The position numbers and the translations under genes were made by a program. Positions 15,001 through 60,754 of a DNA stretch of 64,000 nucleotides are shown here, piece after piece. The stretch is from Clostridia bacterium. GTDB lineage: Bacteria; Bacillota; Clostridia; Oscillospirales; CAG-272. Position 1 is the first letter of the stretch; every line of letters begins with the position of its first letter. The notes beneath the pieces are model-generated. The model saw only the letters and a list, made by a program, of their open reading frames with translations. It was not told the DNA's origin and did not search any database. The stretch spans positions 16,704 through 80,703 of the forward strand of contig JAFSRI010000045.1 of assembly GCA_017446155.1 (NCBI GenBank), given 5' to 3'.

Positions 15001-15186
15001 TCATTAACCAAAAAGCTTGCACGGTTAAAGAAAACTCAAATAATACGACGTGTTCCGATCGAACCGAAAACGGCTTTTCAGCACAAATAAAGCGATCGAA
15101 CAATAGAAAAATATCCTTAACCGTGATTTAATTTGCCCTTATACACGGCTTATTCGAGCCGGACGATTGAAAGGAGCCCCGCAGCC

Positions 15187-17946: not shown

Positions 17947-18018
17947 AATCGCCGAGCGCCAACGGAAACTTTCGGAAAAACATTTTAAAAAACATAACAA
18001 ATATAACAGAGGTGAAAA

Positions 18019-18870: not shown

Positions 18871-18891
18871 AAAGGGGCGCGAAGCCCTTTT

Positions 18892-20109: not shown

Positions 20110-20233
20110 ATTTTTTTCTCCCATGTAAATACTGTTTGACTGTCAAAATTTTTATTAAAGTATTCTCTTTTTTATAAAAACATCGGCAAAAGCAAATTCT
20201 ATCCGCTTATCAAAAAGCAAAGTCGCGCGCTTT

Positions 20234-21853
20234 TTATGTATTGTTCGACGACACAATCTCGCTCCAAGAGGTGATATACGTGTCGTCCATAGGAAGAATT
20301 CCCTCGTCAAGCTCGGCAATATTTGTTATTTTTCCTTCTGTAAAGTCCAAAATACGCTCTCTGCAACTTTCAAGGCGCAGCACGAGTCCGCCGAGGCGCG
20401 CTTCCTGTATTTCAAATCCATACGTTTTGTTTATCTTATACCATTGGAATTTAAAAGCGTCGTAAAAACGGTTTATTCGCTCTATACATTGCGCGTAATC
20501 GTTTTCCGCAAGATTTTTAAGCCCCGCCATATCGCGCGCCGAATAAAGCGCCCTCGTTTTCTTTGCCAAAAGCAGCTTTTTGTTCATCACATCGCACAGA
20601 CGCGCAAGCGTTTCATACATAAAACCGTATCTTTCGCTCTTTCCGGCATGCGAATAAAGCCGCTTGGCATAGTCTGTATACACGTCGGCGTCGGGCGAGG
20701 CAAGATTTGCGCTCATCGCGCCGAAGAATGGATCGTCATAGAGATGGATCTTTGCATAGTTGCATGCGCTGTGCTGAAAATACGGCGACTCGACGGGGAC
20801 GTCATCGCCGTAAATATAGTTGGGCAAGTCCATATCGCAAAAATCGTCGAAATCCTCGCCTGTAATTGCGCGGAATTTTGCCTTCATCTCGGTTTCACTC
20901 ATTCCCTCCGCCGTCGCCGCCGCGTGCATAAGCGCCGGAAGTACAGCCTCGTAAGCGCACTCTCCTCCGTCGTCGCCCCACAACGTGAAAAACGCTTGAC
21001 GAACTCCGTTTTCAACGCACGACGCTATCGCCGTTTCGTTGCGTTTCATGCTGTAACGGTTGTGAGGGGAAAACGTGTTCCAAGTCCACGCGCCACCCGA
21101 AAACCAAACGTCTTTTGAAAGTTTTTTTGCCGAAAGCAACATAGCGTCATATCTTTGCTTGTCAGTGCCGAAATAATCCCAGTGGACGACGCCGCAGTTT
21201 TTCGGCACGTTTTCGGTTATTTCAGGCGGGAAATCTTTTACTTCCGTCGAGCAGAACACCCCCGGAGCAAGACTGAAAAACAGATCTGCCGCCATCATCG
21301 TTTTTTCATAGCCGTATTTTTCGGCTATCTCGCACACGCGCCCAAGGTGTTTCATCAACAGTTCGTATTTATCGGTATATCCGTGCTTGTCGAGGTATTT
21401 TCCAAGCCCGACGTGATGCGCCTCGTCCATTCCTATATGAACGCGCTTTGACGAAAATGTTTTTGAAAGCGTTTTGAATATGTTTTCGATCAGTTCATAC
21501 GTCCTTGGCTCATCTATAAGCAGTATATCGTCTATATCAAAAACGATATTTCTGTATGCTCTCCATTTTTTAAGCGTCCTCAAATGCGCCAGCGTCTGTA
21601 TGCACGGAATTAGTTCTATTCCGACAGAGGCGGCATACCGGTCTATCTCTTTTATCTCTTCTATCGAATATCTGCCGCGTTTATAGCCGAAGTACGGCTC
21701 GTTTTCAACCTCATACGTATCCTCGGTATAAAGCATGGCGGTATTATATCCCATTTTTGATATTGCGCAAAAAAACCGTTTCAGCCCATCAACGTTCGGC
21801 ACAGCGTTGCGCGAGCAATCTATCAATACTCCGAAAGAGTCAAAATTTTTCAT
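20234..21853 (-). CDS. GH20 beta-N-acetylhexosaminidase family protein
   Basis: Typical GH20 catalytic-barrel segments are FGVLIDCSRNAV, ELIPCIQTLAHL and RVHIGMDEAHHVG. I prefer the ATG at 21853 (MKNFDSFG), which follows GGGGGAA. No signal peptide. Confidence 0.75.
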   Translation of the reverse strand: MKNFDSFGVLIDCSRNAVPNVDGLKRFFCAISKMGYNTAMLYTEDTYEVENEPYFGYKRGRYSIEEIKEIDRYAASVGIELIPCIQTLAHLRTLKKWRAYRNIVFDIDDILLIDEPRTYELIENIFKTLSKTFSSKRVHIGMDEAHHVGLGKYLDKHGYTDKYELLMKHLGRVCEIAEKYGYEKTMMAADLFFSLAPGVFCSTEVKDFPPEITENVPKNCGVVHWDYFGTDKQRYDAMLLSAKKLSKDVWFSGGAWTWNTFSPHNRYSMKRNETAIASCVENGVRQAFFTLWGDDGGECAYEAVLPALMHAAATAEGMSETEMKAKFRAITGEDFDDFCDMDLPNYIYGDDVPVESPYFQHSACNYAKIHLYDDPFFGAMSANLASPDADVYTDYAKRLYSHAGKSERYGFMYETLARLCDVMNKKLLLAKKTRALYSARDMAGLKNLAENDYAQCIERINRFYDAFKFQWYKINKTYGFEIQEARLGGLVLRLESCRERILDFTEGKITNIAELDEGILPMDDTYITSWSEIVSSNNT

Positions 21854-21882
21854 TGTGTTCCCCCAGAAAAGCAATATGTCTT

Positions 21883-23334
21883 TTACTCGAATTTAATCGA
21901 GAAGAGTTTTGCGTCCCTCATTCTGAATTTAAGTCTTACGGGCGTCGAAGCAAAGCGCGAAAAATCCTCTCCGTCGGCGAAATAAACCGCCCTGTCTATA
22001 TTGTCACCGTAAATCTCAAAACTCTCGCCGGAAATTTCTCGTCCGTCCTCGTCGAGCACGCTCATAAAAATATATCCGTAAGCCGATGTTGAAAAGTTTA
22101 TATGCGGAATTTTGCCGTCAAACACAATCGGTTTAGTCACAAGCGTCGCCTCATCGCCGCCTGCCATATAGCAGGCAAAACCGTCTTTTCTTATTTCATA
22201 TCTGTTGAGCGGTTTTGAATATCCGAATGAAAAATGGCGGTCTATCGTATAAAGATTATAGTATTCCCTGCCTGAATCTATAAGACCGTATGCGAGGTAG
22301 CAATCGCCGTATATCCAGTTGTGCTCTTCCTCATAACCCGGCGTCAAAAACGCTTCGTTGAATCTATGCCACATCTTTGAATCGCGCGAGCAAATGAAGA
22401 TACAGTCCGTGGCGACGCGCCCGGTGCGGTCTTCAATCGTTTCCGTCGCTTTCTTTTTCGTCAGGTAACTCGTCATCTGCTCCACGTTTTTCGTCCATTC
22501 CTTGCGCTCGCAATATCTTACCGGAAAGCCGATCTTCATTTGCGGGGCGCGGTCGTATATCTGAATATTGTTCGTATACAACGGATAGTCCTTTCCGTCG
22601 TCGAATTCAACAAGTTCAGGCAACGACCAATGCCTGAAATCATCGGAATACATCACGCGGATGTCGCGTGTAGCATAGCTCCACATTTTGCTGTGGCTGT
22701 ATATTTGACTTATATCGAGTATTTCACTGTTGTCAACGCCTATAATATTGTGAAAGCTGCGGTAAAAACAAACGTATTTTTCGCCGTCCCACATGGCGGT
22801 GTTGAGCGAATCGAACGTGCCGAAACGAGTCATCGGGTGAGAAAGCGTAAAACGATAGCCGTCCGAGGAAATATAACAGCAAAGCGCCGTTTTTTCTTCA
22901 CCGTCGGAATATTGAATTTTTGCCACTCCCACCGCTTTGTATTTTTCTTCTTTCGGGCAGGCGGGGTTTGTATCGTAAAAGACAAAAACCCCGTCTTTTA
23001 CTTGATCTATCACAACGTTGTTTTCCGCGAGGTCATTATCAAAAATGTCGAGATGCGGTCTGTGCCAATGAATGCCGTCAACGCTTTCGATCACGCACAC
23101 GCATGGTTTGAACCCTTCCTTTATCCACGGCTGATAGTACATTTTATATCCCGCCTCGTCTTTTACGACGCACGGGTAGCTTATGCTGAACGTTTCGTTT
23201 TTTTGATCGAATTCAAAAACACATTCTTTCTTCGTCGGTTGGATCATACGTGCCGACGCTGTGGTTTTTTCGGTATCCACAAGATAATCGTCCCAGAAAA
23301 CCTGTCTGGTTTTACCTATGTTTACAGCCGCCAT
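21883..23334 (-). CDS. Hypothetical beta-propeller protein, unclassified glycoside hydrolase candidate
   Basis: I moved the start to the ATG at 23334 (MAAVNIGKTRQVFWDDYLV), which follows GAGGT. The track extension to 23466 is AT-rich leader. The protein is beta-strand rich and ends in a beta-sandwich-like tail (VRLKFRMRDAKLFSIKFE), as seen in many GH32/43/130-type enzymes. No family-defining motif recognised. Confidence 0.5.
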   Translation of the reverse strand: MAAVNIGKTRQVFWDDYLVDTEKTTASARMIQPTKKECVFEFDQKNETFSISYPCVVKDEAGYKMYYQPWIKEGFKPCVCVIESVDGIHWHRPHLDIFDNDLAENNVVIDQVKDGVFVFYDTNPACPKEEKYKAVGVAKIQYSDGEEKTALCCYISSDGYRFTLSHPMTRFGTFDSLNTAMWDGEKYVCFYRSFHNIIGVDNSEILDISQIYSHSKMWSYATRDIRVMYSDDFRHWSLPELVEFDDGKDYPLYTNNIQIYDRAPQMKIGFPVRYCERKEWTKNVEQMTSYLTKKKATETIEDRTGRVATDCIFICSRDSKMWHRFNEAFLTPGYEEEHNWIYGDCYLAYGLIDSGREYYNLYTIDRHFSFGYSKPLNRYEIRKDGFACYMAGGDEATLVTKPIVFDGKIPHINFSTSAYGYIFMSVLDEDGREISGESFEIYGDNIDRAVYFADGEDFSRFASTPVRLKFRMRDAKLFSIKFE

Positions 23335-23508
23335 GATATTTACCTCACTTATGCAAATTTTACATATTAAAAATATCATATATCTTCGGATTTTGCAAGC
23401 ATAACGTTCGCGTTGCGGCGATATTTTTGTTTTTATGTTGATTTCGCGGCGTTTCCGTGATATCATTTTATCGGATCATAAACCGATACATCGGAGGATT
23501 ATATTATA

Positions 23509-24819
23509 ATGGAATACATAAGCAGATACGAATATGAAAAATTTGTCGAAAGCACGCGCGAGCAAAGAATGAAATGGTTCAAAGAAGCGCGGCTCGGGAT
23601 GTTCATCCATTACGGGCTTTATTCTCAGCTCGGAACGGGGGAATGGTCGCAGGCAAACGAAAATTACACGGTAAAAGAATATGAGCGGCTGGCAGGATCT
23701 TTTGCTCCGAAAGAAAACTGCTGCGACGAATGGTGCGCTTTGGCAAAAGCGATGGGGGCGAAATACGCCGTTTTCACGACTCGCCATCACGAGGGGTTTT
23801 CCCTTTGGGATTCAAAGGCAAACCCGTATAATTCCGTGAATTTCATCGGGCGCGATCTCGTGAGAGAATTCGTTGACGCGTGCAGAAAGTACGGACTTAA
23901 AATCGGGCTTTACTCTTCGCTTATGGATTGGCATCACCCCGATTCGTGGAAGTGCGCGAACGACGCCGAAGCGCGAAAAAGATTCACCGATTATATTGAG
24001 GCGCTCAACGTCGAGCTTTTGTCGAATTACGGCAAGATCGACGTGCTTTGGTATGACGTTTCCTGCCCGATAACGAGCGCGGAGGGTTGGGATTCGATAA
24101 ACCGCAACTACCGATTGCGCAAGCTCCAGCCGCATATTATTATAAACAATCGCAGTATGCTCGACGAAGATTTCGGCACTCCCGAGGGATATATCTCCGC
24201 CGACGGAAATCACTATTTCGAGTCGTGCCTGACGCTTACCAATCTCGCGTGGGGATACGTCGACGCCGAACAGGCTCATCCTTTCATGAAAACGCCGAAG
24301 CAAATATTGCGCGATCTGCACCTGTGCACCTGCAAGGGCGGCAATCTGCTTCTCAATATTTCTCCCGCGCAAGACGGAAGCGTTCCCGCCGATACGGTCG
24401 AAACGCTGACGACGGTGGGAAACTGGCTGAACGTAAACGGAGCTGCCGCGTACGGGGAAAAATATCCCACGGCGCCCGTTTACAGCGCGAACACGCTTAC
24501 CGCCGTTTCAGCCGATAAAGACCTTAAAACGTTTTATCTGTGGAACTGGGTATGGCCGAAAAACGGCGAGATGCGCTTCGGCGGATATATGGAAGCACCA
24601 AGGAAAATATCTTATCTTTCCAGCGGAAAAGAGATAGATTTCACGTTCGACGGACACAGGATACTTCTCCACGGGCTGCCTCCCTCGCCGCCGGACAAAA
24701 TTTGCGGCGTAACGGTGCTTAAAATGGAATTCGACGCGCCGCCGAAACACAAATTCAGAAGCTATTATCCGCAAATGTGGAGCGGAAACGATTTTTCCGA
24801 CGGGAACAACGAATGGTAA
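23509..24819 (+). CDS. GH29 alpha-L-fucosidase
   Basis: 436-aa ORF with a GGAGG RBS. Family-typical segments are WFKEARLGMFIHYGLYS, AKYAVFTTRHHEGFSLWDS and VLWYD. No signal peptide. Confidence 0.85.
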   Translation: MEYISRYEYEKFVESTREQRMKWFKEARLGMFIHYGLYSQLGTGEWSQANENYTVKEYERLAGSFAPKENCCDEWCALAKAMGAKYAVFTTRHHEGFSLWDSKANPYNSVNFIGRDLVREFVDACRKYGLKIGLYSSLMDWHHPDSWKCANDAEARKRFTDYIEALNVELLSNYGKIDVLWYDVSCPITSAEGWDSINRNYRLRKLQPHIIINNRSMLDEDFGTPEGYISADGNHYFESCLTLTNLAWGYVDAEQAHPFMKTPKQILRDLHLCTCKGGNLLLNISPAQDGSVPADTVETLTTVGNWLNVNGAAAYGEKYPTAPVYSANTLTAVSADKDLKTFYLWNWVWPKNGEMRFGGYMEAPRKISYLSSGKEIDFTFDGHRILLHGLPPSPPDKICGVTVLKMEFDAPPKHKFRSYYPQMWSGNDFSDGNNEW

Positions 24820-33229: not shown

Positions 33230-35455
33230 ATGAACGGATATTGGATAACGACGCGTCAAACGCCTCAAAAGAGCGCATACTACTATTTTACAAAACAGTT
33301 TTCACTCGAAAAACTGCCCGAAAGTTTTTCGGTAAATATTTGCGCCGACAGAAGATATATTTTATATATAAACGGCGTGGAAATTGCTCATGGGCCGTGT
33401 CAAAGCGGTGAGGAAATGCGCTATTTTGAAACGGTAAACGCCGCGCACGCGCTGAAAAAAGGCGAAAATGAAATTGCGGTAAGGGTTTTTCACGTCGTCG
33501 GCGACAGTTTTATCGCCGTTTACGGCAAAGAAAAACCGGCGCTGTGGTTTTGCGGAAAACTGCGCTCGGGCTATGAAGAAACGTTGCTCTTTTCCGACTC
33601 CTCGTGGCAATGCAAGCGTTCGGACGCCGTATCGTTCCGCCGCGGAGAACGCATACACAACTCCGTCGCGCCTTTTGAGGACGTGGCAAAAGACGAGATT
33701 TTGACAGACGAGGAGATAATCGAAGATTATGAGCCTCGCCCGGAAAGAGCATCCACGACATGCTACGGGCTAAATGAAAAATACATTCTTACCCCACGCC
33801 CGATACCGGTTTTCACGTCGGACAAAAGCGAAAAACTGAAAGAAATAAGACGTTACACTGACAAGGACGGAAAAACTTGCGTCGAGTTTGACGCAGGCAG
33901 ATACACAACGTCGTTTGTCGACGTTGTCTTTAAGGCGAAAACCGAAGCGGAAATCAAAATAACATATGCAGAATGTTACGCATTTCCGGACGGAGAAAAC
34001 AAGCCTAAAAAATTCCGGCGCGACGACACCTCCGGTTGCTTGTTCGGCGCGTATGACAGCGTAATCTCCGACGGTAACAAAAAAACGTTCACGCCGTTCT
34101 GGTACAGGGCGTTTCGGTTTATCAAGATCGAAACCGACGACGCGGGAATCGATGTTGAAATATTCCACAGACGTTACGTTTATCCGTTTGAAAAAGCCGC
34201 CGAAAACGGTGGCGTCGGAAGTTTTTTATGCTCTGACGAAACGCTGAACAAAATGTGGGATGTGTCGCTTAACACCGTAGAATGTTCAACTCACGAGATA
34301 TTCGTCGACTGTCCGTATTACGAACAGCAACAATACTGCATGGACGGAGCGCTTGAATCGCTGTTCGCTTTCAGAATGTCAAACGATCGTTCAATGCAGA
34401 AAAAAATCATCTTCGATATGGCGCAATCGCAACAGACGGACGGCATGATTCAGGCAAACTACCCGTCAACTCACAGGCAAATAATACCGGGGTTCACGCT
34501 TTTTTGGGTGTTGATGAGCAGAGAATATCTGCGTTATACCGGCGACACGGAGTTTGTTCGCTCGATGAGCGGCGTAGTTGACCGTGCGCTTGAAGGGTTT
34601 GAGGCAATGCTGAACGAGCGGGGCATTGTCGGCGGGAGCAAGTATTGGATGTTCACCGATTGGGTTGACAGCTGGAAGTTAGGCGTGCCGACGGGCGGAA
34701 TTGAGAGAGAACCCGTTACCGTTTACAGTATGATGTACGCGGCGGCACTTGAAAGTCAGGCTCAGGTATGCGAAAAATGCGGCAGACGCGGCCTTGCCGA
34801 AGAATACCGTGAGCGCAAATCGCGTATTATCCAAAACATAAACAAATACTGCTTCGACGCGGAAAAGCAAATGTATGTCGACGTTCCCGGCAGGCGTGAT
34901 TTCAGCCGACATACAGCCGTGTGGGCGGTGCTTTCCGACACGGTCACGGGCGATGACGCGCGCGAACTTATCATACGTGCGTTTGGCGATGAAAGCGTTT
35001 CAAAATGCTCGTTTTCGATGAATTATTACACTTTCCGCGCGCTTGAAAAAGCGGGACTTTACGACGATTATTCCGACGAGCTTTTCGACGGCTGGCGATA
35101 TATGCTCGATATGCACTGCACGACGTGGTGTGAGAACCCCGGACAACCGCGAAGCGAATGTCACGGTTGGAGCAGTGTGCCGATATATGAATTTTCGGAA
35201 CACATCCTCGGCGTTTATCCCGAGGACGACGGATACAAGGTGGTGCGCATTACTCCGCACACATTCGGGCTTGAAAACGCTCAAGGAAGAGTTCCCGTGC
35301 CCGGCGGATATATCGACGTTTCGTTTAAAAAGCATGGCGACGGCTATATTTTGCACATATCATCATCGAAGCGGAGAACGCTTCACATTATCCTGCCGGG
35401 CGGCGACGAAATATTGACCGACGAAAGCGAGATCTCGCTTGAATTTACCGAATAA
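33230..35455 (+). CDS. GH78-like alpha-L-rhamnosidase family protein (six-hairpin glycosidase)
   Basis: 741-aa ORF with a GGGGGAGGG RBS. The N-terminal rhamnosidase-type beta-sandwich has YYYFTKQF, ADRRYILYINGVEIAHGP and VRVFH. The catalytic (alpha/alpha)6 domain has FVDCPYYEQQQYCMDG. No signal peptide. Confidence 0.7.
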   Translation: MNGYWITTRQTPQKSAYYYFTKQFSLEKLPESFSVNICADRRYILYINGVEIAHGPCQSGEEMRYFETVNAAHALKKGENEIAVRVFHVVGDSFIAVYGKEKPALWFCGKLRSGYEETLLFSDSSWQCKRSDAVSFRRGERIHNSVAPFEDVAKDEILTDEEIIEDYEPRPERASTTCYGLNEKYILTPRPIPVFTSDKSEKLKEIRRYTDKDGKTCVEFDAGRYTTSFVDVVFKAKTEAEIKITYAECYAFPDGENKPKKFRRDDTSGCLFGAYDSVISDGNKKTFTPFWYRAFRFIKIETDDAGIDVEIFHRRYVYPFEKAAENGGVGSFLCSDETLNKMWDVSLNTVECSTHEIFVDCPYYEQQQYCMDGALESLFAFRMSNDRSMQKKIIFDMAQSQQTDGMIQANYPSTHRQIIPGFTLFWVLMSREYLRYTGDTEFVRSMSGVVDRALEGFEAMLNERGIVGGSKYWMFTDWVDSWKLGVPTGGIEREPVTVYSMMYAAALESQAQVCEKCGRRGLAEEYRERKSRIIQNINKYCFDAEKQMYVDVPGRRDFSRHTAVWAVLSDTVTGDDARELIIRAFGDESVSKCSFSMNYYTFRALEKAGLYDDYSDELFDGWRYMLDMHCTTWCENPGQPRSECHGWSSVPIYEFSEHILGVYPEDDGYKVVRITPHTFGLENAQGRVPVPGGYIDVSFKKHGDGYILHISSSKRRTLHIILPGGDEILTDESEISLEFTE

Positions 35456-51793: not shown

Positions 51794-53749
51794 ATGATAG
51801 ACGTAAAAAAACTCAGCGGAGAAGAAAAGCTCCGTTTGGTTATGGCAAGAAACAGTTGGAGCAACTATTCGCTTGACGGCAAGATCTATTCTTTCGCCGT
51901 ATCGGACGCGACATGCGGTCTTCGCACAAAAGAGTCGCTTGAAGACGACGGCAGCCCCACATTGCCTTCGATAGCTTACCCTTCGTCGCAAATGCTGGCA
52001 AACAGCTGGGATGTGAAATTGGCGGAAGAATACGGTCGCGCTATTGCAAACGATTGTATTGAAAAAGGCATAGATATAGTGCTCGGCCCCGGCGTAAATA
52101 TAAAGAGGCTTCCCATCTGCGGACGAAATTTCGAGTATTACAGCGAAGACCCCATACTTGCAGGATATATCGCCAAAGGGTTCGTCACCGGACTTCAAAA
52201 AGAACATATCGGCGCTTGCGTAAAACATTATTGTGCCAACAACATAGAATACGGCCGTCTTTTCAACTCATCTGAGGTAGATGAAAGAACTCTGCGCGAA
52301 ATATACCTGCGCGTGTTCCAAATAGCCATGGAAGCAAAACCTTGGACGGTTATGTGCTCATATAACCTTCTCAACGGCACGCTTATGTCGGAAAACGGCA
52401 AAATGTTCGACCTTCTCCGCGATGAGTTCGGTTTTGACGGGCTCGTCATGTCCGACTGGTCGGCAGTCAGGCGTTCGTCACGTTCAATCAACGGCGGTCT
52501 TGACATCGAAATGCCGCACAACACGCCGAGAGAAACAGAGATGAGAGAAGATTATGCGGCGGGGCTCGTTGACGAAAAGATGCTCGACCGAGCCGCCGGC
52601 AGAGTTATTGCGCTCGCCGAAAAATGCGGCGAAGAGAGCAAAAAGAGAAAACTGACGATGACGACGGAAGAACGTGAAGAATTTGTTGTAAAAGCCGCAA
52701 GAGAGAGCATCGTTCTTCTTAAAAACAAAAATAACACCTTGCCGCTTACAAACGAAAAAGTAATGATAACAGGAGCCCCAGAACGCAGCTTCTACGAAGG
52801 CGGCGGTTCGGCAAAAGTTGAACCGTCAAAGCCGCTGCTTCGCCTCGGCGCGGCGCTGAGAGAACTCGGCATCGACACTTCGTACCGCGAAAGCGTAAGA
52901 GAGGTTTTGGGCGGGCAGGCTTGCATGAACGGCAGCGCAGTAAGCTGCCGGGAAGAGCTGCAAGTTCGCGACGCCGCGATAATTGAGGTGGGCAATTCGT
53001 CGACAACCGAAACGGAATGTCGCGACAGACAGACGATAAAACTCTGCTTTGAAGAGATAAGCGTAATAAAATATCTCGCCGAAAAATGCCCCGACAAAAA
53101 GATAATCGTAGTTATATACGCCGGCTCAGCCGTCGATATGTCCGATTGGATAGACGACGTTGACGCCGTCGTTTGGGCGGGCTATTGCGGACAGGGCGGA
53201 AACCGCGCGGTAGCGGAGATCATCACGGGCAAAGCAAACCCGTGCGGCAAACTTTCCGAAACGTTCCCGCTTCATCTTGAAGACGTCAAGGCAATGCATT
53301 CGCACATCGACCCCGAAACCGTTGTATATGAAGAAGAACTCGACGTCGGTTACAGATATTTTGAAACGCACAACGTTGACGTTCTCTTCCCGTTCGGCTA
53401 CGGACTTTCATATTCAAATTATGAATATTCCTCGCTTTCCGTTTCGCAGAATGAAAACACGCTCACCGCAACGTTTGACATTTCAAACACGTCCGACGTC
53501 GACGGTAAGGAAACGGCGCAGCTTTACGTTTCGTTCGATACGCCCGACCGCGGCCGTCCGAGCATAGAGCTTAAAGGCTTTACAAAAGTATTCGTTCCGG
53601 CACATAAAAAGGTAAAAGCGACGATCACAGTAGACAAGAAATATCTCAATTATTTCTCGCTTGAACAAAACAAGTTTGTTGATATAGAGAAGTTGACGGT
53701 AAAGATCGGTCGAAACTGCCACGACATCGTTCTTGAAAAAGAAGTTTGA
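51794..53749 (+). CDS. GH3 family glycoside hydrolase (beta-glucosidase/beta-hexosaminidase type)
   Basis: 651-aa ORF with a GAGGTGG RBS. GPGVNIKRLPICGRNFEYYSEDP, KHYCANN and the nucleophile region GLVMSDW are GH3 hallmarks. A C-terminal Fn3-like domain is present. No signal peptide. Confidence 0.85.
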   Translation: MIDVKKLSGEEKLRLVMARNSWSNYSLDGKIYSFAVSDATCGLRTKESLEDDGSPTLPSIAYPSSQMLANSWDVKLAEEYGRAIANDCIEKGIDIVLGPGVNIKRLPICGRNFEYYSEDPILAGYIAKGFVTGLQKEHIGACVKHYCANNIEYGRLFNSSEVDERTLREIYLRVFQIAMEAKPWTVMCSYNLLNGTLMSENGKMFDLLRDEFGFDGLVMSDWSAVRRSSRSINGGLDIEMPHNTPRETEMREDYAAGLVDEKMLDRAAGRVIALAEKCGEESKKRKLTMTTEEREEFVVKAARESIVLLKNKNNTLPLTNEKVMITGAPERSFYEGGGSAKVEPSKPLLRLGAALRELGIDTSYRESVREVLGGQACMNGSAVSCREELQVRDAAIIEVGNSSTTETECRDRQTIKLCFEEISVIKYLAEKCPDKKIIVVIYAGSAVDMSDWIDDVDAVVWAGYCGQGGNRAVAEIITGKANPCGKLSETFPLHLEDVKAMHSHIDPETVVYEEELDVGYRYFETHNVDVLFPFGYGLSYSNYEYSSLSVSQNENTLTATFDISNTSDVDGKETAQLYVSFDTPDRGRPSIELKGFTKVFVPAHKKVKATITVDKKYLNYFSLEQNKFVDIEKLTVKIGRNCHDIVLEKEV

Positions 53750-54007: not shown

Positions 54008-54409
54008 TCATTTCATAAGATCGGCCACGGTCAAGGAGTCAAAGAAATCGTTTATCAATACGTTCAGTTTATCCCACATCGGACGTGTGCGGCATTCTTC
54101 CGCACGCTGACAAGGCTCGGCGTTACATTCAAGACAAGATACCGGCGCAAGCTCGCCTTCGGTCAGCCGCAATATCTCACCTATTTTATATTCCTCTGCC
54201 TTTCGCAAAAGTTTATATCCGCCGCCCTTGCCGTGAACACCCTCGATAAGGCCGTTTGCCACAAGCGACGGCAATATCTTTTCAAGATATTTAAGTGAAA
54301 TTTCCTGTCTCTGCGCCACGTCCCTCATCGGAACATATCCTCCGTCGGTATGCTCGGCGAGATCTATCATCACACGAAGAGCATACCTGCCCTTTGTCGA
54401 AATCATCAT
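54008..54409 (-). CDS. Rrf2 family transcriptional regulator (CymR/IscR-like)
   Basis: I prefer the start at the ATG-ATG pair at 54409/54406 (MMISTKGRYALRVMIDLA), which follows AGAAGGGA. It has a winged-helix N-terminus and three C-terminal Cys (CLECNAEPCQRAEEC), suggesting Fe-S ligation. Confidence 0.8.
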   Translation of the reverse strand: MMISTKGRYALRVMIDLAEHTDGGYVPMRDVAQRQEISLKYLEKILPSLVANGLIEGVHGKGGGYKLLRKAEEYKIGEILRLTEGELAPVSCLECNAEPCQRAEECRTRPMWDKLNVLINDFFDSLTVADLMK

Positions 54410-54518
54410 TTTACGTTTTTTCCCTTCTCTCAAATGCGATAAGTCGTTTTTGTTTTATCAAACATTTTTTAAATACTTAAAAAGCCGATATTTGATGTCT
54501 TTTTTCATTTATTCGGTA

Positions 54519-55451
54519 TCAGTCCGCAAATAACGGCGTTGAAAGGTATCTGTCGCCCGTGTCGGGGAGCAAAACGACTATGTTCTTTCCTTTGTTTTCC
54601 GGGCGTTTGGCAAGTTCTATCGCCGCCCACGTTGCCGCACCGGCTGAAATTCCGACAAGAACCCCCTCTTTTTTGCCGATGAGTTTTCCCGTCGCAAACG
54701 CGTCCTCGTTCGTTACGGTTATTATTTCATCGTATACCGAGGTATTGAGCACGTCCGGAACAAATCCCGCGCCGATGCCCTGAATCTTGTGCGCTCCCGC
54801 GACGCCTGTTGATAAAACAGCCGACGACGCCGGCTCTACCGCCACCACTTTCACCGCCGGATTTTGGGCTTTAAGATACTCTCCCACACCCGTCACCGTG
54901 CCGCCCGTGCCGACACCCGCGACAAAAATATCAACTTTGCCGTCGGTGTCGTCCCAAATTTCAGGTCCCGTCGTTTCTCTGTGCGCTTTCGGATTTGCCT
55001 GGTTTACAAACTGACCCGGAATAAAGCTGTTCGGCGTAGAGTCGGCGATTTCCTGCGCCTTTGCTATGGCGCCCTTCATTCCTTTTGCGCCGTCCGTCAG
55101 CACAAGTTCCGCACCGTATGCTTTCATTATTTGTCTGCGCTCAACCGACATCGTTTCCGGCATAACTATGATTATTCTGTATCCCTTTGCCGCCGCAACG
55201 GACGCCAGCCCTATGCCCGTGTTTCCGGACGTCGGCTCGACTATCACCGCCCCCTCTTTCAGCTTGCCGCTTTTTTCGGCGTCCTCTATCATTGCTTTTG
55301 CAATTCTGTCCTTCACCGAACCCGCCGGGTTAAAATATTCGAGCTTTGCCAAAATTTTTGCGTCGAGTTTTTCCGATTTTTCAATATGCGTAAGTTCCAA
55401 AAGCGGCGTCTTTCCTATAAGTTGATCAGCCGATGTATATATTTTTGACAT
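54519..55451 (-). CDS. cysK: Cysteine synthase A (O-acetylserine sulfhydrylase)
   Basis: 310-aa ORF with an [30 protein letters not shown] (PLP lysine), [12 protein letters not shown] and [10 protein letters not shown] are hallmarks. Confidence 0.95.
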
Positions 55452-56029: not shown

Positions 56030-56057
56030 TTGACAATCCGTTTTTTTCTGTTATTAT
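56030..56057 (+). promoter_or_regulatory. SigmaA-type promoter of the ABC-DUF1854-darA operon
   Basis: TTGACA (56030-56035), a 16-nt spacer, then TATTAT (56052-56057). Confidence 0.55.
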
Positions 56058-56125
56058 ATAGAAAACCCAACAGAAAACATTACTCTTATTTCAAAAAGCG
56101 GCTTAAAGCCCATAAGGAAAAATTT

Positions 56126-58381
56126 ATGGAATACTCCTTACCGATTTTCAATAAGACGATCCAAAGCAAAGTTATAGAAGAAAAATTATCTCAGGCAGTA
56201 GGCGGCAGAGAGGAACTCTTCCGTATCGTGTGCGACCTGCAACTTAACGGCAATTACGGCGAAAGCACGGTGTCGTTTCTCGACGACGAAATAATAGGCG
56301 TTGACAGCACGGGCGCCGTCATTGATGTGAAAATTGATGAAGTCGAGCGGTTGTATATAAAGCGTATGTATGGCAACGCCGTATTTATAGCGGCAAAAAA
56401 GAACGGCGAGAAAGTTGAGCTTGCGCGCTCGACCCATTCCGTGACGGCGCTTATGAATACCGCAGTGCTTTATTTTGAAAAAATATTGTCCGGCATACCG
56501 CGCGAACAAGCGTTGGAAGCCGTCAAAGTATCGTTTGACAGTCTTGTATGCTCATGCCCCAAATGCGGCAGACCGCTGATACATCCCGGTGCCGACTGCA
56601 TCAACTGCGCTTCAAAGGGAAAACTTGTTCACAAGCTCGTAAAGTATGTTAAGCCCGAAACCAAACGGTTGGCAATATCGGTCATACTGTCGATGATAAC
56701 AACCGTTGTATCGCTTCTTCCGCCTTATATAACAAAAATGCTGGTTGATGACGTCATACCTTCAAAAAACGAAAAGACGCTTATCATGATCGTTATTTTC
56801 CTGCTAAGCGCATATATCGTTCAATATACGGCGTCCGCCGTGCGCGGAATACTTCTTAAAATATGCGGCGACAGAATAGTGGAACATCTGAGAAACGACG
56901 TTTTCGACAAAGCCCAGCACCTGCCGATGAAGTTTTATGACAAAACCTCGACGGGCTCCGTCATAAACCGTATCAGCAACGACACAAACAACCTCCAACA
57001 GTTCATCATGCGTATAACGCAGGACGTTATAACCCAACTGTTTTTGCTTGTCGGCATCGTCATTATAATGATTTCAATGAACTGGAAGCTGACGCTGCTA
57101 TCGCTTATTCCCGTGCCGTTTGTCGTTTTTGCCTCGCGCAAATTCGGGCGTAAAATACGTCCGTTTTACCGCAGGATATGGCGAAAATGGACAGCGGTAT
57201 CGTCGATACTCACCGACAGCATTCCGTGCATAAGAGTCGTAAAGGCGTTTGCAAACGAAAAACGATCGGCTAAAAGATTTACAAAACAGAACGCCGAATG
57301 GCGCAGAGTAAGCACCGTAGCCGGAAAAATATCGAGCGTATTCCCCAATGTGGTGTCGTTTGTCATCACCTGCGGATCTCTTCTCATCTGGTACATAGGC
57401 GGCAAAAACGTTATCGCGGGCAGCTCCACAATCTCCGCCGGTCTTCTCGTTTCTTTCATTTCATACACTACAATGTTCTATGGCCCCGTCAACTTCTTTG
57501 CGGGACTCAACGACGCATATCAAAACGCCTTAACAAGCACCGAAAGGATAATGGACATCCTCGACGCCGAGTCCGAGCATGATGACGGCGCGGGCAACTG
57601 TCCGGACTTTATTCGCGGCAAGGTGGAATTTCGTCACGTCAGCTTTTCGTTTGACAAGAGCAAAAACGTCCTTTCCGACATAAACCTGACAATAGAACCC
57701 GGCGAGTCGGTCGGCATTGTCGGCACGACAGGTTCCGGCAAGACAACGCTTGTAAACCTGTTCATGCGGTTTTATGACAACTACGACGGCACAATCCTCC
57801 TCGACGGAAAAGACATAAAAACGATAGATTTAAGCTATCTCAGATCAAAAATCGGCTATGTTCAACAGGAAGCAATGATGTTTTCCGACACGATCTTCAA
57901 CAATATCGCATACGGAAAACCAAACGCCACGATAGAAGAAGTCATTTCCGCCGCTGACGTTGCAAACGCGCATTCGTTTATTATAAAACACCCTGACGCA
58001 TACGATACGATCCTCGGCGAGCGCGGCGTCGGACTTTCAGGCGGCGAGCGTCAGAGAATCTCCATTGCGCGCGCAATTCTCAACAACCCGCGTGTAATGA
58101 TACTTGACGAGGCGACGAGCGCCGTTGACTCCGAAACGGAAAAACTCATTCAAGACGCGATAAACAACCTTATCAAAGGCAGAACGACACTTATGATAGC
58201 ACACCGTCTTTCTACCTTGCGGCAAGCGGACAAAATTCTTGTAATCGACCAAGGACGCATCGCCGAATACGGCACTCCCGCCGAGCTTATGGCGAAAAAG
58301 GGCAAGTATTACAAGTTGGTAACGATTCAGTCCATGGCAGACCAAGTCCGCCTTGACAAAGAAAAAGAACACTTTGAATAA
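56126..58381 (+). CDS. ABC exporter half-transporter (TMD-NBD) with a cytoplasmic N-terminal extension of about 180 aa containing a zinc ribbon
   Basis: I moved the start to the ATG at 56126 (MEYSLPIF), which follows TAAGGAAAA. The track extension from 55928 covers the promoter. A CPKC-x10-CINC ribbon lies just before TM1. It has a six-TM exporter domain, Walker A GTTGSGKTT, signature LSGGERQR, and Walker B MILDEATSAVD. Confidence 0.85.
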   Translation: MEYSLPIFNKTIQSKVIEEKLSQAVGGREELFRIVCDLQLNGNYGESTVSFLDDEIIGVDSTGAVIDVKIDEVERLYIKRMYGNAVFIAAKKNGEKVELARSTHSVTALMNTAVLYFEKILSGIPREQALEAVKVSFDSLVCSCPKCGRPLIHPGADCINCASKGKLVHKLVKYVKPETKRLAISVILSMITTVVSLLPPYITKMLVDDVIPSKNEKTLIMIVIFLLSAYIVQYTASAVRGILLKICGDRIVEHLRNDVFDKAQHLPMKFYDKTSTGSVINRISNDTNNLQQFIMRITQDVITQLFLLVGIVIIMISMNWKLTLLSLIPVPFVVFASRKFGRKIRPFYRRIWRKWTAVSSILTDSIPCIRVVKAFANEKRSAKRFTKQNAEWRRVSTVAGKISSVFPNVVSFVITCGSLLIWYIGGKNVIAGSSTISAGLLVSFISYTTMFYGPVNFFAGLNDAYQNALTSTERIMDILDAESEHDDGAGNCPDFIRGKVEFRHVSFSFDKSKNVLSDINLTIEPGESVGIVGTTGSGKTTLVNLFMRFYDNYDGTILLDGKDIKTIDLSYLRSKIGYVQQEAMMFSDTIFNNIAYGKPNATIEEVISAADVANAHSFIIKHPDAYDTILGERGVGLSGGERQRISIARAILNNPRVMILDEATSAVDSETEKLIQDAINNLIKGRTTLMIAHRLSTLRQADKILVIDQGRIAEYGTPAELMAKKGKYYKLVTIQSMADQVRLDKEKEHFE

Positions 58382-58395
58382 AGGAGGGCGGCAGA

Positions 58396-58884
58396 ATGAA
58401 AGGATTTTATATCGACGGCGACGAAGCGCGCATGACGCGCACGGGACTTACGTCGCTGACGCTTGAAATTTACGGCGGCAAAACGTATGAACGTCTTGAA
58501 CCCATACGGTTGTTTCCATCGTCCGGCATTACGAAATATATTTCACTCATCGATGAAACAGGCGCCGAAGTGGCGATAATACGCGATCTTGAAAAGCTGC
58601 TGCCCGGCTCAAAAGAGGCGGTGGAGGCTTGCCTTGACGAATATTATATAGTTCCCAAAATAAAACGTATCGTCGCACGCAAAGAAAAATACGGCAACAT
58701 AACGTGGACTGTCGAAACGAACCGCGGACTTCATTCGTTTGACATATTAAACACCTCGACCGATATTAAAACGTTGTATGACGGGCGAATACTGATAAAA
58801 GACGCAAACGACAACAGATATGAAATATCAAACGTCGACAATCTCGACAAGGGCTCTTTGAATTTATTAAAATATGATATGTAG
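58396..58884 (+). CDS. DUF1854 family protein
   Basis: 162-aa ORF, 14 nt after the ABC stop, with an AGGAGGG RBS. Its size, sequence character (LEPIRLFPSS, YISLIDETGAEVAIIRDL, ITWTVETNRG) and position after an ABC exporter fit my memory of DUF1854. Confidence 0.6.
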   Translation: MKGFYIDGDEARMTRTGLTSLTLEIYGGKTYERLEPIRLFPSSGITKYISLIDETGAEVAIIRDLEKLLPGSKEAVEACLDEYYIVPKIKRIVARKEKYGNITWTVETNRGLHSFDILNTSTDIKTLYDGRILIKDANDNRYEISNVDNLDKGSLNLLKYDM

Positions 58885-58896
58885 GAGGAAAAGGAT

Positions 58897-59223
58897 TTGA
58901 AACTTGTATTGGCAGTAATAAATAACGACGACAGCCGCGCGGCGATCACAGCGCTGACCGGGCAGGATTTCTTCGTAACACAGCTTTCCACCACCGGCGG
59001 ATTTTTGCTTGTCGGCAACACTACGCTTCTTATAGGTACGAGCGAGGAACGATTGGGGGAACTCAAAGAAATTCTCAAACAATACTGCAAAACGAGGACA
59101 AAAACCGGCCCCTCAGCGAGCGCCCTCGGAAGAAGTATGTTAAACCACTCGGTTGAAGAAGAAGTCACCGTAGGCGGAGCCGTAATTTTCGTTTTGTCGG
59201 TTGACGAATTTGACAGAATCTGA
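58897..59223 (+). CDS. darA: PII-like cyclic-di-AMP receptor DarA/PstA (DUF970 family)
   Basis: 108-aa ORF with a TTG start 8 nt after AGGAGG. It aligns end to end with my recollection of B. subtilis YaaQ/DarA. Matching segments are MKLVLAVINNDDS, LTGQDFFVTQLSTTGGFLLVGNTTLLIG and VGGAVIFVLSVDEF. Confidence 0.8.
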   Translation: MKLVLAVINNDDSRAAITALTGQDFFVTQLSTTGGFLLVGNTTLLIGTSEERLGELKEILKQYCKTRTKTGPSASALGRSMLNHSVEEEVTVGGAVIFVLSVDEFDRI

Positions 59224-59329: not shown

Positions 59330-59378
59330 AAAATAAATTCTCCCGTGACGAAAGATTTCGCCACGGGAGAATTTTTAA
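59330..59378. terminator. Bidirectional terminator between darA and the SLH gene
   Basis: Stem TTCTCCCGTG (59338-59347) pairs with CACGGGAGAA (59362-59371). It is followed by TTTTT and preceded by an A-rich run. Confidence 0.8.
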
Positions 59379-59379
59379 T

Positions 59380-60603
59380 TTATGAGATAAGTTTGCAGAT
59401 GATCATAGCGGCCGACGCTCTGTTCACCGTATCGGTTGCACTCATGCCGTAAAAGAACCCGAGTTTCGCCATTGCATACAGTCCCTCGTCCGTAATCTCC
59501 TCGCCGCCGCTCGCCCCGACGGGCACCTCGGTTTGCGCGTCCGCCGTAATTGAAATTATCCTTGAAACTATCGTTGCCGCCTGCGAAACGGTTATCGCCT
59601 CATCACCCATAAAGTATCTTCCGCCGTCGTCCTCAACCCCAAAAATAATCCCCAATCTTTCAGCCGCGCACACATATCCGCGCACTCCGTCGGAAATTAA
59701 AGCGTCGTCGTTAAACGACGTCTGTTTCGGCAAGTCAGCCGGAATCTCCGCCGCATTCATAGCCATTACAAGAAATTCCCCGCGCGATACCGCCTTTTCG
59801 GGATAATAAAACCGCTTACCGCCTACAACCTCTCCTACAAGTATTCCCTTTTCACCTACATTTACCGCCGCCGTATATGCGTCATTACCCGCCATATCGG
59901 CGTAAACTATGCCGCTTTTGTTCTTTGCCACGTTTATCGTAACGGTGGCTTCATCCGAAACATTGCCGTATTCATCGAGCGCAACGTATGAAAATTTATC
60001 CTTACCCGAAAAGTTTTCGTCGGGAGAATAGATATATTTTCCCGTTTCATCATCGAGCGTCACCGCCCCATGTCTTGCCTGCTTCACTATTTTATACTTC
60101 ATCGCATCACCGTCGGGATCCTTTGCGTCAAGCAAACCCGTATACGTCACGTTTTCCATTGCCGACACGGTCATGCTCGCAACCTGAGGCGAAAAGTCAA
60201 GCGACGGAAGCATCGCTATCGCACAAACAAATTTTTCGTCGTTATCTCCGGTTGTAAAATCAAATACTGCGCGGCTTCCCTCGCCCGCCGGAACAAACCT
60301 CATCGCCGCAATCATTTCCGCCGAGATATTTTCCCCCGCCGTGATGTCCTCTGTCCCGAGCATCAGTTTTCCCTGTTCCGCGTCGGGAAGCGTGAGCACC
60401 TTTACGTTTCTCACCGTCGCGCCGACGAAATTCTCAAAATCAGCCGATGTGAACGCCACCGAGTTTTGTCCCACGCCTGTCTTTATCATCGTCATTGACG
60501 CGCGAATAACGTCAAACGCGGGCGAAAGACTTGCCGCGCCTACCGTCAGCGACAAGCACATGAACATACATAAAATAAATATGGGAATAATTATTTTTTT
60601 CAT
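59380..60603 (-). CDS. Secreted cell-wall protein with an Ig/cadherin-like domain and C-terminal S-layer-homology (SLH) repeats
   Basis: I moved the start to the ATG at 60603 (MKKIIIPIFILCMFMCLSLTVGAAS signal peptide), which follows GGGGGAGGAAA. The central segment DPDGDAMKYKIV..HGAVTLDDETGKYIYSPDENFSGKDKFSYVALDEYGN is cadherin-like. Three SLH-like repeats follow at the C-terminus. Confidence 0.75.
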   Translation of the reverse strand: MKKIIIPIFILCMFMCLSLTVGAASLSPAFDVIRASMTMIKTGVGQNSVAFTSADFENFVGATVRNVKVLTLPDAEQGKLMLGTEDITAGENISAEMIAAMRFVPAGEGSRAVFDFTTGDNDEKFVCAIAMLPSLDFSPQVASMTVSAMENVTYTGLLDAKDPDGDAMKYKIVKQARHGAVTLDDETGKYIYSPDENFSGKDKFSYVALDEYGNVSDEATVTINVAKNKSGIVYADMAGNDAYTAAVNVGEKGILVGEVVGGKRFYYPEKAVSRGEFLVMAMNAAEIPADLPKQTSFNDDALISDGVRGYVCAAERLGIIFGVEDDGGRYFMGDEAITVSQAATIVSRIISITADAQTEVPVGASGGEEITDEGLYAMAKLGFFYGMSATDTVNRASAAMIICKLIS

Positions 60604-60754
60604 TTTGTTTCCTCCCCCTTTTCCCATTTGCCATGAGTTTTTCCAAACGTTTGGAAAGTTATTCATTTTTGCGGGAGAGGTTTTTTAATATTTTGTTTCG
60701 GATGTTTTTTTTCAGTCGGATTTACAAAAGACTTTATTTGACACAATCAAACTC

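Follow-up and report, generated by a model that had tools for sequence, protein, structure and literature searches.

A conserved operon of Clostridia linking a DarA/PstA-type c-di-AMP receptor to a DUF1854-type ABC exporter

Our analysis of a 64,000-nucleotide stretch of Clostridia DNA (hereafter the window) reveals an operon in which the gene of a DarA-type protein directly follows those of an ABC half-transporter and of a DUF1854 protein. Across related genomes, only this triad, with its promoter and its terminator, is retained while the flanks scramble. The triad might be a single transcription unit whose products make up an export module responsive to c-di-AMP, a reading to which we give about even odds (probability roughly 0.5).

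Layout of the operon

All the elements claimed by the original prediction were found where it had placed them, and the unit can be described as follows.

56030..56057, + strand: TG-extended sigma-70-type promoter TTGACA-16-TATTAT (promoter scan, 11/12 matches)
56126..58381, + strand: ABC gene, 751 aa (Pfam ABC_membrane and ABC_tran)
56126..56545, + strand: N-terminal cytoplasmic domain of the ABC protein, residues 1 to ~140 (weak bPH_3 matches, invariant KRMYGN)
56555..56608, + strand: four-cysteine zinc ribbon CPKC-x10-CINC (C144, C147, C158, C161)
56669..57490, + strand: transmembrane domain, residues 182-455 (PF00664)
57671..58120, + strand: nucleotide-binding domain, residues 516-665 (PF00005)
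58396..58884, + strand: DUF1854 gene, 162 aa (PF08909)
58897..59223, + strand: darA-type gene, 108 aa, TTG start (PF06153)
59335..59374, both strands: bidirectional intrinsic terminator (hairpin folding, with a U-run on either side)

The sigmaA promoter is thus as had been claimed, and so are the three same-strand genes, with gaps of 14 nt between ABC and DUF1854 and of 12 nt between DUF1854 and darA. An AGGAGG-type ribosome-binding site had been announced for each gene; it is present ahead of the DUF1854 gene and of darA, but the ABC gene has AAGGAA. The terminator had been called strong and bidirectional, and its hairpin indeed reaches -26.1 kcal/mol on the + strand and -29.6 kcal/mol on the - strand, with z-scores of -7.4 and -10.2 (0 shuffles fold as well) and a U-run after the hairpin on each strand. 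It is common to the triad and to the convergent gene at 59380-60666.

Similar signals surround the triad elsewhere. Of 68 related loci, 81% have a promoter of at least 10/12 in the 210 nt that precede the ABC gene, compared with 2% of the coding windows that served as control, and a hairpin of -15 kcal/mol or lower occurs within 220 nt after darA in 58/67 related loci. The promoter scan also gave two promoter-like matches inside the operon, ahead of darA; an internal promoter at this place is not conserved, since only 11% of related loci score at least 10/12 there. RNA data consist of one run with just two small contigs, both within the ABC gene. We infer that the three genes are co-transcribed as one transcription unit.

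The three encoded proteins

The first gene encodes a complete TMD-NBD half-transporter, in agreement with the original prediction. In the HMM search, Pfam ABC_membrane (PF00664) scored 187 bits over profile positions 1-274 of 274, and ABC_tran (PF00005) 116 bits over positions 1-137 of 137. Walker A, Q-loop, signature, Walker B (with its Glu) and H-loop are all legible in the translation, which contains GTTGSGKT, LSGGERQR, ILDEATS and IAHRL. The protein therefore has what defines an ABCB-type (type IV fold) exporter, namely a complete six-helix TMD fused to a motif-intact NBD, and its closest solved structures are TM288, Sav1866, BmrA and MsbA, the alignment starting at about residue 163. The original prediction had mentioned RefSeq names that tie ABC and DUF1854 pairs to cyanophycin; they do exist (NF052233 and NF052234), but both proteins of the window fall below the cut-offs, the ABC protein with 582.8 bits against 880 and the DUF1854 protein with 89.2 bits against 150. 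Profile positions 31-752 of 766 of NF052233 align to ABC residues 29-744, which places the ABC protein as a remote member in the family named 'cyanophycin metabolism-associated ABC transporter'.

An N-terminal module of ~180 aa precedes the ABC fold. Its first part contains the motif KRMYGN, invariant at residues 79-84, and gave weak bPH_3 matches in 7/14 ABC homologues (best 8.5e-5); the model of this domain, of low confidence (pLDDT 47), shows seven strands and then a long helix, and the domain is probably a bacterial PH-like one. The zinc ribbon expected before TM1 is also there, about 20 residues ahead of it, with its four cysteines invariant in 14 homologues and with weak matches to DZR, zf-ChsH2 and Zn_Ribbon_1 in 4 to 6 of 14 members. 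The idea that this module is an extra specific to the locus did not hold. Because NF052233 aligns from residue 29, and because DarA-less relatives have the module as well (locus L006), the combination of bPH-like domain and zinc ribbon is a hallmark of the entire cyanophycin-associated ABC family.

The second gene had rightly been attributed to DUF1854 (PF08909, 134.4 bits, cut-off 26.8). Its AF2 model (pLDDT 87.7) consists of two beta-rich halves with a helix capping each, and no relative was found in the PDB, whether sought by sequence or by fold. DUF1854 has been proposed from cofitness data to be an ABC-exporter subunit (bioRxiv 10.1101/072470), and we presume that the protein acts here as a cytoplasmic accessory subunit of the exporter.

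The third protein matches PF06153 (CdAMP_rec) with 105.3 bits (cut-off 27) over profile positions 1-108 of 109, and it also matches LmPstA 4rww (2e-20), BsDarA 4rle and SaPstA 4d3g. Its naming as DarA is thus upheld for the family, but not for the DarA equivalog NF058593, against which it reaches 97.5 bits for a cut-off of 140. Since the ABC, DUF1854 and DarA proteins all score under their NCBIfam equivalog cut-offs, they should be seen not as equivalogs but as relatives, of DarA in one case and of the CphA-associated pair in the others. Judged by these matches, the third protein is a PII-like c-di-AMP receptor of the DarA/PstA type. The window DarA contains every residue identified from crystal structures as touching c-di-AMP (LmPstA numbering: T28, G34-G35-F36-L37, N41, G47, G94 and F99; PMC4475381), and these make up a predicted c-di-AMP site; in the triad DarAs, T28, G34-G35-F36-L37, N41, G47, G93-G94 and F98 are kept in 77 to 79 of 79, and T, V or I takes the place of Lm T97.

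The known proteins of Bacillus subtilis (BsDarA, or YaaQ), Staphylococcus aureus (SaPstA) and Listeria monocytogenes (LmPstA) belong to PF06153 (4rle, 4d3g/4wk1, 4rww), have the same length, align over the full length with E of 1e-17 to 2e-20, and share with triad DarA the contact residues (PMC4475381) as well as a short T-loop and a long B-loop. However, triad DarA is just ~45-50% identical to them. Arg26, found in most PstA proteins, is replaced in the triad clade, mostly by Phe, and the C-terminal His by Glu/Asp then Lys, while the B-loop tip F77-G78-R79-G80 (F-G-R-G) shows a conservation specific to the triad clade. Listeria PstA likewise has no Arg26, yet it binds c-di-AMP (PMC4475381). 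Moreover, the B-loop of PstA shifts on c-di-AMP binding (PMC12802241).

Conservation of the triad across genomes

Conservation was approached from both ends of the operon. Starting from DUF1854, we took the best 80 loci among at least 585 GTDB species genomes with this DUF1854 clade: DarA was in the locus in 78/80 of these closest species-level genomes and directly downstream on the same strand in 74/80, so that the adjacency is conserved in related genomes. Starting from DarA, in metagenomes, DUF1854 adjoined it in 76/79 evaluable loci, and the DarA homologues checked one by one (53-63% identity) were in triads in 5/5 cases. Sensor and transporter are thus linked in a conserved operon, as in PII-type regulatory pairs. 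Spacing is tight, with a median gap of 12 nt between ABC and DUF1854 (79 species) and of 17 nt between DUF1854 and darA.

In Bacillus, Listeria and Staphylococcus, darA belongs to a tmk context (PMC4475381), whereas the window has no tmk and its darA follows ABC-DUF1854. The gene was therefore correctly described as lying outside its usual context relative to these genera, but not within this large Clostridia clade, where the triad is the usual context of DarA.

It might be argued that darA was inserted once behind ABC-DUF1854 in an ancestor and has simply never been separated since, so that the gene order would be inherited without function. All carriers found come indeed from one broad Clostridia group (Eubacteriales/Oscillospirales-type MAGs), which is compatible with a single origin. 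However, both flanks have been almost wholly replaced: 653 ORFs from the flanks formed 447 clusters, the commonest cluster occurs in just 7/80 loci, and at least 8 distinct genomic contexts of the triad were observed directly. The triad persists through this turnover at DUF1854 identities of 47-72% and DarA identities of 48-86%, and DarA stays close by even in rearranged loci, being inverted yet adjacent in L036, separated by one inserted gene in L043 and L075, and 2.8 kb from an ABC gene of opposite orientation in L114. Purely inherited order is thus very improbable in our view. The adjacency of DarA and exporter, found in ~96% of loci from either sampling side with reshuffled surroundings, is supported as a meaningful one. 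A few relatives (loci L006, L007 and L037) keep ABC and DUF1854 and have no DarA nearby, so the exporter can function without an adjacent DarA.

A meaningful adjacency does not need contact between the proteins. DarA could be the general c-di-AMP receptor of the clade, acting on targets of its own and merely co-expressed with the transporter. GlnR-type regulators or metabolic enzymes would be possible targets, and osmotic, potassium or nitrogen stress the shared conditions. The sole target of DarA/PstA published to date is the transcription factor GlnR (PMC13484208, a July 2026 preprint); the phenotypes of PstA and DarA are pleiotropic (PMC12802241, PMC7857571); the DarA family is elsewhere linked to tmk and to an Orn/Lys/Arg decarboxylase (PMC4475381; fusion P0293), and to ktrBA in L114. 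No second darA was seen within the window, so the copy found there may be the housekeeping one. On the other hand, co-regulation alone seldom holds a spacing of 9-40 nt in ~96% of loci, with DUF1854 down to 47% identity and flanks turning over, and the clade-specific B-loop tip fits a conserved, clade-specific partner. This explanation deserves to be taken seriously, but we find it rather unlikely.

A putative c-di-AMP-responsive exporter

Being encoded in one tight operon with the DarA sensor, the exporter is its obvious candidate target, and PII-family proteins often regulate transporters (PMC12802241). From the order of the genes and the conservation of the residues that bind the ligand, we infer c-di-AMP-gated efflux, and consider it well motivated; a physical interaction between DarA and the exporter, and a direction of regulation, would be implied. 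The ABC protein would form a homodimeric ABCB-type exporter carrying, in each subunit, a bPH-like domain and a zinc ribbon before TM1, with DUF1854 as soluble accessory subunit, as proposed for the proteobacterial relatives. A DarA-type trimer would sense c-di-AMP in its inter-subunit clefts and, according to its ligand load, might dock via the long B-loop onto DUF1854, the N-terminal module or the NBD, switching transport on or off as GlnK does on AmtB and SbtB on SbtA.

This proposal is a functional analogy with GlnK-AmtB and SbtB-SbtA, where a conserved operon likewise encodes a transporter together with a small sensor, a trimer of PII fold. One of these sensors, SbtB, is itself able to bind c-di-AMP (PMC8654305). 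The likeness is one of gene linkage, and binding of sensor to transporter is here a prediction. In contrast to the trimeric channel or symporter of the AmtB/SbtA type, the partner in the triad would be an ABC exporter, dimeric, driven by ATP and supplemented by a soluble subunit, and DarA-type proteins have a long B-loop instead of a long T-loop (PMC4475381, PMC12802241). The mismatch in symmetry between a trimeric PII-like DarA and a dimeric exporter counts against gating, as do a published target, GlnR, that is no transporter, the replaced Arg26, the score of DarA under the equivalog cut-off and the existence of DarA-less relatives. c-di-AMP is already known to act on an ABC transporter of osmolyte balance, OpuC, whose subunit OpuCA has the CBS domains that mediate this control (PMC6108528 gives Kd values for OpuCA); however, OpuC is an importer in which the nucleotide binds directly to the ATPase subunit, whereas the triad would encode an exporter with a separate receptor as mediator.

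The cargo could also be c-di-AMP itself or a related nucleotide, with DarA as cytoplasmic level sensor or substrate donor that turns the pump on at high c-di-AMP. The conservation of the triad speaks for such a homeostasis pump too, a receptor encoded with its pump is a simple feedback design, and Firmicutes actively export c-di-AMP, which rescues cells with high levels of it (PMC6108528). Nevertheless, the c-di-AMP exporters known so far belong to the MFS/EmrB-type MDR pumps, not to the ABC exporters (PMC6108528), the beta-proteobacterial ABC and DUF1854 pair is tied to cphA/cphA' and not to c-di-AMP (bioRxiv 10.1101/072470; NF052233 naming), and the DarA-less relatives possess the N-terminal module and DUF1854 too. 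Taken together, these points make a nucleotide pump quite improbable.

That beta-proteobacterial pair (NF052233/NF052234; Price et al., bioRxiv 10.1101/072470) is among the closest described systems, with the same two-gene core, the same domain layout including the N-terminal module, and a DUF1854 gene likewise directly downstream, proposed to encode an exporter subunit. The window proteins score far under its equivalog cut-offs, and an attached DarA gene distinguishes the triad from the described proteobacterial ABC/DUF1854 systems. A linkage of the triad to cphA/cphA' was not apparent: the 20 largest ORFs of the window include no CphA, in line with the original statement that the window has no cyanophycin synthetase gene, and no neighbouring family occurs in more than 7/80 related loci. 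As to the substrate, the cyanophycin link of the family lets us guess at a compound derived from amino acids and either rich in nitrogen or cationic, which is the weakest step of the proposal.

In its most specific form, the hypothesis would make DarA/PstA the dedicated, operon-encoded gate of a DUF1854-type exporter in a clade of more than 500 gut and rumen Clostridia species-level genomes. The cargo would be cationic and rich in nitrogen, for instance a peptide that contains Arg or resembles cyanophycin, or a molecule similar to a polyamine, with c-di-AMP coupling potassium and osmotic status to organic-cation export. The recurrent links of DarA to an Orn/Lys/Arg decarboxylase and to KtrAB would then make sense. 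We hold this full version to be speculative and, as it stands, unlikely; if it is true, the DarA/PstA family would have its first conserved target in membrane transport.

To conclude, the targets of DarA/PstA proteins have been sought since 2015, and a paper of December 2025 still lists their partners as unknown (PMC12802241). A near-obligatory operon link to one specific exporter in hundreds of species gives DarA a concrete, clonable partner candidate, while DUF1854 and the bPH/zinc-ribbon module, both of unknown role, enter the same question. If the link is physical, the principle by which a PII protein gates the neighbouring transporter would reach ABC exporters and c-di-AMP, the cargo of the cyanophycin-associated ABC/DUF1854 family could be approached from a new angle, and a defined output of c-di-AMP would be available for Clostridia that are abundant in gut and rumen but uncultured.

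The operon and its products

The ABC, DUF1854 and darA genes form the three-gene unit that was originally predicted: the promoter, the common strand, the gaps of 14 nt (genes 1-2) and 12 nt (genes 2-3), the TTG start of darA and the bidirectional terminator were all confirmed. The prediction of an AGGAGG-type ribosome-binding site for each gene held for genes 2 and 3 and failed for gene 1, which is preceded by AAGGAA.

Features of the operon and its surroundings
15133-24819, 33230-35455 and 51794-53749: glycan-degrading genes (GH95 fucosidase, GH20, alpha-L-fucosidase, BNR sialidase-like, rhamnosidase-like, GH3)
54008-54433, - strand: Rrf2-family regulator, beside cysK
54519-55451, - strand: cysK, divergent, just upstream of the operon
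55837-55809, - strand: promoter TTGACA-17-TATAAT, perfect 12/12, directed at cysK and the Rrf2 regulator
56030-56057, + strand: promoter TTGACA-16-TATTAT with TG extension, 11/12 positions matching
56126-58381, + strand: gene 1, ABC half-transporter, 751 aa
58396-58884, + strand: gene 2, DUF1854 protein, 162 aa
58897-59223, + strand: gene 3, darA, 108 aa, TTG start
59335-59374, both strands: bidirectional terminator hairpin, -26.1 kcal/mol on + and -29.6 on -

The terminator hairpin, whose folding was equalled by 0 shuffles, is followed by U-runs on both strands and also serves a convergent gene (59380-60666, - strand), whose product, of 428 aa, is secreted and has Big_9 and cadherin-like domains. 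Rfam gave 0 matches to a riboswitch or other RNA leader across the whole window, the leader of about 360 nt ahead of cysK included. A separate darA promoter was considered on the basis of two 10-of-12 matches in the window, but was rejected since promoter-like sites ahead of darA occur in 11% of loci and are not conserved. In one RNA run, 9% of words were present and two short contigs were obtained, both inside the ABC gene. The source organism is uncultured, and the locus occurs in gut metagenomes of sheep and goats. The window is ordinary chromosome, made up of glycan-degrading and housekeeping genes (among the latter HtpG, DnaB, TilS-like, FakA, DinB and RNase J), and the dense glycan-degrading set suggests a forager on host or plant glycans.

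Gene 1 encodes a complete ABCB-type half-transporter (PF00664 at residues 182-455, PF00005 at residues 516-665) in which all ATPase motifs are intact. The nearest solved structures are TM288, Sav1866, BmrA and MsbA, and their alignment starts only at about residue 163; the N-terminal 180 residues or so are cytoplasmic. This N-terminal module had been regarded as an addition of this locus, a view that we abandon: the NCBIfam model NF052233 ("cyanophycin metabolism-associated ABC transporter") aligns to residues 29-744 (583 bits, below its cut-off of 880), so that the module is not peculiar to the locus. Weak matches to bPH_3 (bacterial PH domain; best 8.5e-5) and to zinc-ribbon families were obtained in about half of 14 ABC homologues, and the module has four invariant cysteines (C144, C147, C158, C161) and an invariant KRMYGN motif. 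Its AF2 model, built from 3 sequences (2 homologues were retrieved), reached a pLDDT of 47 and was therefore left out of the fold search. An origin of the module as a DUF1854 duplicate was ruled out (hhalign probability 0.4%), and so was an anti-phage defence system, PADLOC showing merely generic ATPase similarity of the nucleotide-binding domain.

HMM searches bore out the predicted identities of the two smaller products. Gene 2 encodes a DUF1854 protein (PF08909, 134 bits; NF052234, 89 bits, below the NCBIfam cut-off of 150), and a relaxed Pfam scan returned PF08909 only. Its AF2 model (pLDDT 87.7) shows two beta-rich halves with a helix at the end of each; a Foldseek comparison of the model with the PDB yielded nothing credible (best E 0.07, TM <0.3), and a PDB sequence search of the protein yielded no match. 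Gene 3 encodes a DarA/PstA-type PII-like protein (PF06153, 105 bits), which scores 97.5 on the NCBIfam DarA equivalog model, under the cut-off of 140, and matches Listeria PstA (4rww, 2e-20), B. subtilis DarA (4rle) and S. aureus PstA (4d3g).

Conservation of the triad among related loci

Starting from DUF1854, we scanned GTDB with each species represented by one genome; at least 585 genomes carry a relative, and the best 80 loci were used for the counts. All of these 80 are Clostridia (Eubacteriales/Oscillospirales-type), mostly gut and rumen MAGs, and include Eubacterium sp. CAG:841, Candidatus Apopatosoma, Acutalibacteraceae and Ruminococcaceae UBA bins and one isolate, Acutalibacteraceae SVS042. 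The adjacency of darA to the ABC and DUF1854 genes, first remarked in the window, recurs in both directions: a DarA homologue is present at 78 of the best 80 loci (directly downstream and on the same strand in 74), and DUF1854 adjoins DarA at 76/79 evaluable loci of a DarA-side sample of JGI/ENA metagenome contigs. Moreover, the five DarA homologues that we examined individually (53-63% identity) all lie in triads (5/5). Median gaps are 12 nt between the ABC and DUF1854 genes and 17 nt between the DUF1854 and darA genes.

The ends of the unit are conserved as well. In 81% of loci, the 210 nt ahead of the ABC gene contain a sigma-70-type promoter (at least 10/12), in contrast to 2% of coding control windows, and in 58/67 loci darA is followed by a hairpin that folds at -15 kcal/mol or below. 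The triad thus looks like a single operon throughout the related loci, as judged from these sequence features, and we infer that its genes are co-transcribed. The flanks are scrambled, since 653 flanking ORFs fell into 447 clusters and the most widespread cluster occurs at 7/80 loci. Scrambled flanks together with conserved boundaries indicate that the triad is the only unit that selection keeps together; that it should be inherited synteny devoid of functional meaning is, in our opinion, very improbable.

A few of the related loci (L-numbers, from other genomes or metagenome contigs) depart from this arrangement. At L036, DarA is directly downstream of DUF1854 but inverted (10547-10909, - strand), so that closeness is kept without co-transcription. 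In two species (L043, 10538-11998, and L075, same position), DUF1854 and darA are separated by one inserted gene, whose 486-aa product is a polytopic membrane protein of the DUF6056 family (354 bits); this gene may point to a cell-envelope role or be a passenger. At L066 the contig end is too close to judge the presence of DarA, and at L037 there is no DarA within 3.9 kb. The more distant L006 and L007 (44% DUF1854 identity) have the ABC and DUF1854 genes, with the same N-terminal module, and lack DarA.

The 3 exceptions among the 79 DarA-side loci (L112-L114) probably come from one organism. In them, darA stands immediately ahead of ktrB (TrkH family) and ktrA (TrkA_N and TrkA_C; L114, 4998-7404), and a strong homologue of the window ABC gene lies 2.8 kb upstream of darA on the opposite strand. 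KtrAB takes up potassium, and its RCK_C domain is a classic target of c-di-AMP. At L011 (6378-7202, - strand), tmk is found 3 kb from the triad, followed by a gpmI-type phosphoglycerate mutase gene (Metalloenzyme and iPGM_N), and this triad-bearing contig has no darA beside tmk, which hints from gene order that the canonical tmk-darA link may be absent in that organism. PstA genes were always with tmk in the species examined previously (Lm, Sa, Bs, Ef, C. botulinum and L. brevis; PMC4475381).

The c-di-AMP site of DarA and a possible control of export

The c-di-AMP contact residues of the Listeria PstA complex (PMC4475381) were compared in 79 triad DarAs. T28, G34, G35, N41, G94 and F98 are each present in 79/79, L37 and G93 in 78/79, and F36 and G47 in 77/79; the position of Lm T97 is occupied by T, V or I. 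Arg26 is substituted, mostly by Phe; Listeria PstA is also without Arg26 and retains c-di-AMP binding (PMC4475381). Compared with 81 other family representatives, the tip of the B-loop (F77-G78-R79-G80) is unusually conserved in the triad clade, and likewise K57, N10, S13 and S31. The B-loop is the element of PstA that moves upon c-di-AMP binding (PMC4475381, PMC12802241), and the clade-specific conservation of its tip is what would be expected from a conserved, clade-specific partner.

Other architectures were seen among the representative proteins of the CdAMP_rec family (P-numbers). Tandem CdAMP_rec-CdAMP_rec proteins of 206-260 aa, in which a single chain contains both DarA domains (P0182, P0184, P0185 and many others), are common, and no description of them was found in the literature examined. 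P0293 (569 aa, single-member cluster) fuses an Orn/Lys/Arg decarboxylase to a C-terminal CdAMP_rec and echoes the decarboxylase-tmk-pstA operons (PMC4475381). The P0275 cluster (7 members) consists of apparent fusions of a half-MATE efflux pump (MatE) with CdAMP_rec; one of them, a DnaB+MatE+partial-DarA chimera, is implausible, so that gene calling may have read through from one gene into its neighbour, and we gave the cluster no weight as independent support.

In the searchable literature, DUF1854 is treated in one paper: its mutants show cofitness with those of cphA/cphA' and of the ABC gene in Acidovorax and Cupriavidus, and it was proposed as a subunit of an amino-acid-polymer exporter (bioRxiv 10.1101/072470). 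A cyanophycin locus was ruled out here: the window has no CphA, as originally noted, and the 80 loci share no recurrent neighbour. Nor does the window hold a tmk, a second darA or a second ABC-gene homologue. An efflux pump for c-di-AMP with DarA as its sensor seems improbable, because known c-di-AMP exporters are MFS-type (PMC6108528).

We propose that the exporter would be a homodimer with a bPH-like/zinc-ribbon cytoplasmic module and with DUF1854 as a soluble accessory subunit. A DarA trimer might dock via its B-loop onto a cytoplasmic component of this complex and gate transport according to its c-di-AMP load, by analogy with GlnK-AmtB and SbtB-SbtA. We infer the physical contact, the sign of the regulation and the substrate of the module. 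We give a probability of about 0.5 to the possibility that DarA regulates the exporter directly. PstA partners were still called unknown in December 2025 (PMC12802241), and a July 2026 preprint reported GlnR as the first PstA target, in S. aureus (PMC13484208). That DarA is co-expressed with the exporter and acts on independent targets is also conceivable, if rather unlikely in our view.

The family of each part is already known, as is the principle of a PII-type sensor encoded with the transporter that it controls. Searches of the available literature found no link between DarA/PstA and either DUF1854 or this ABC family. So far as that literature shows, the near-obligatory association between DUF1854-type ABC exporters and a DarA-type c-di-AMP receptor, which gene neighbourhoods point to in hundreds of species, would be new.
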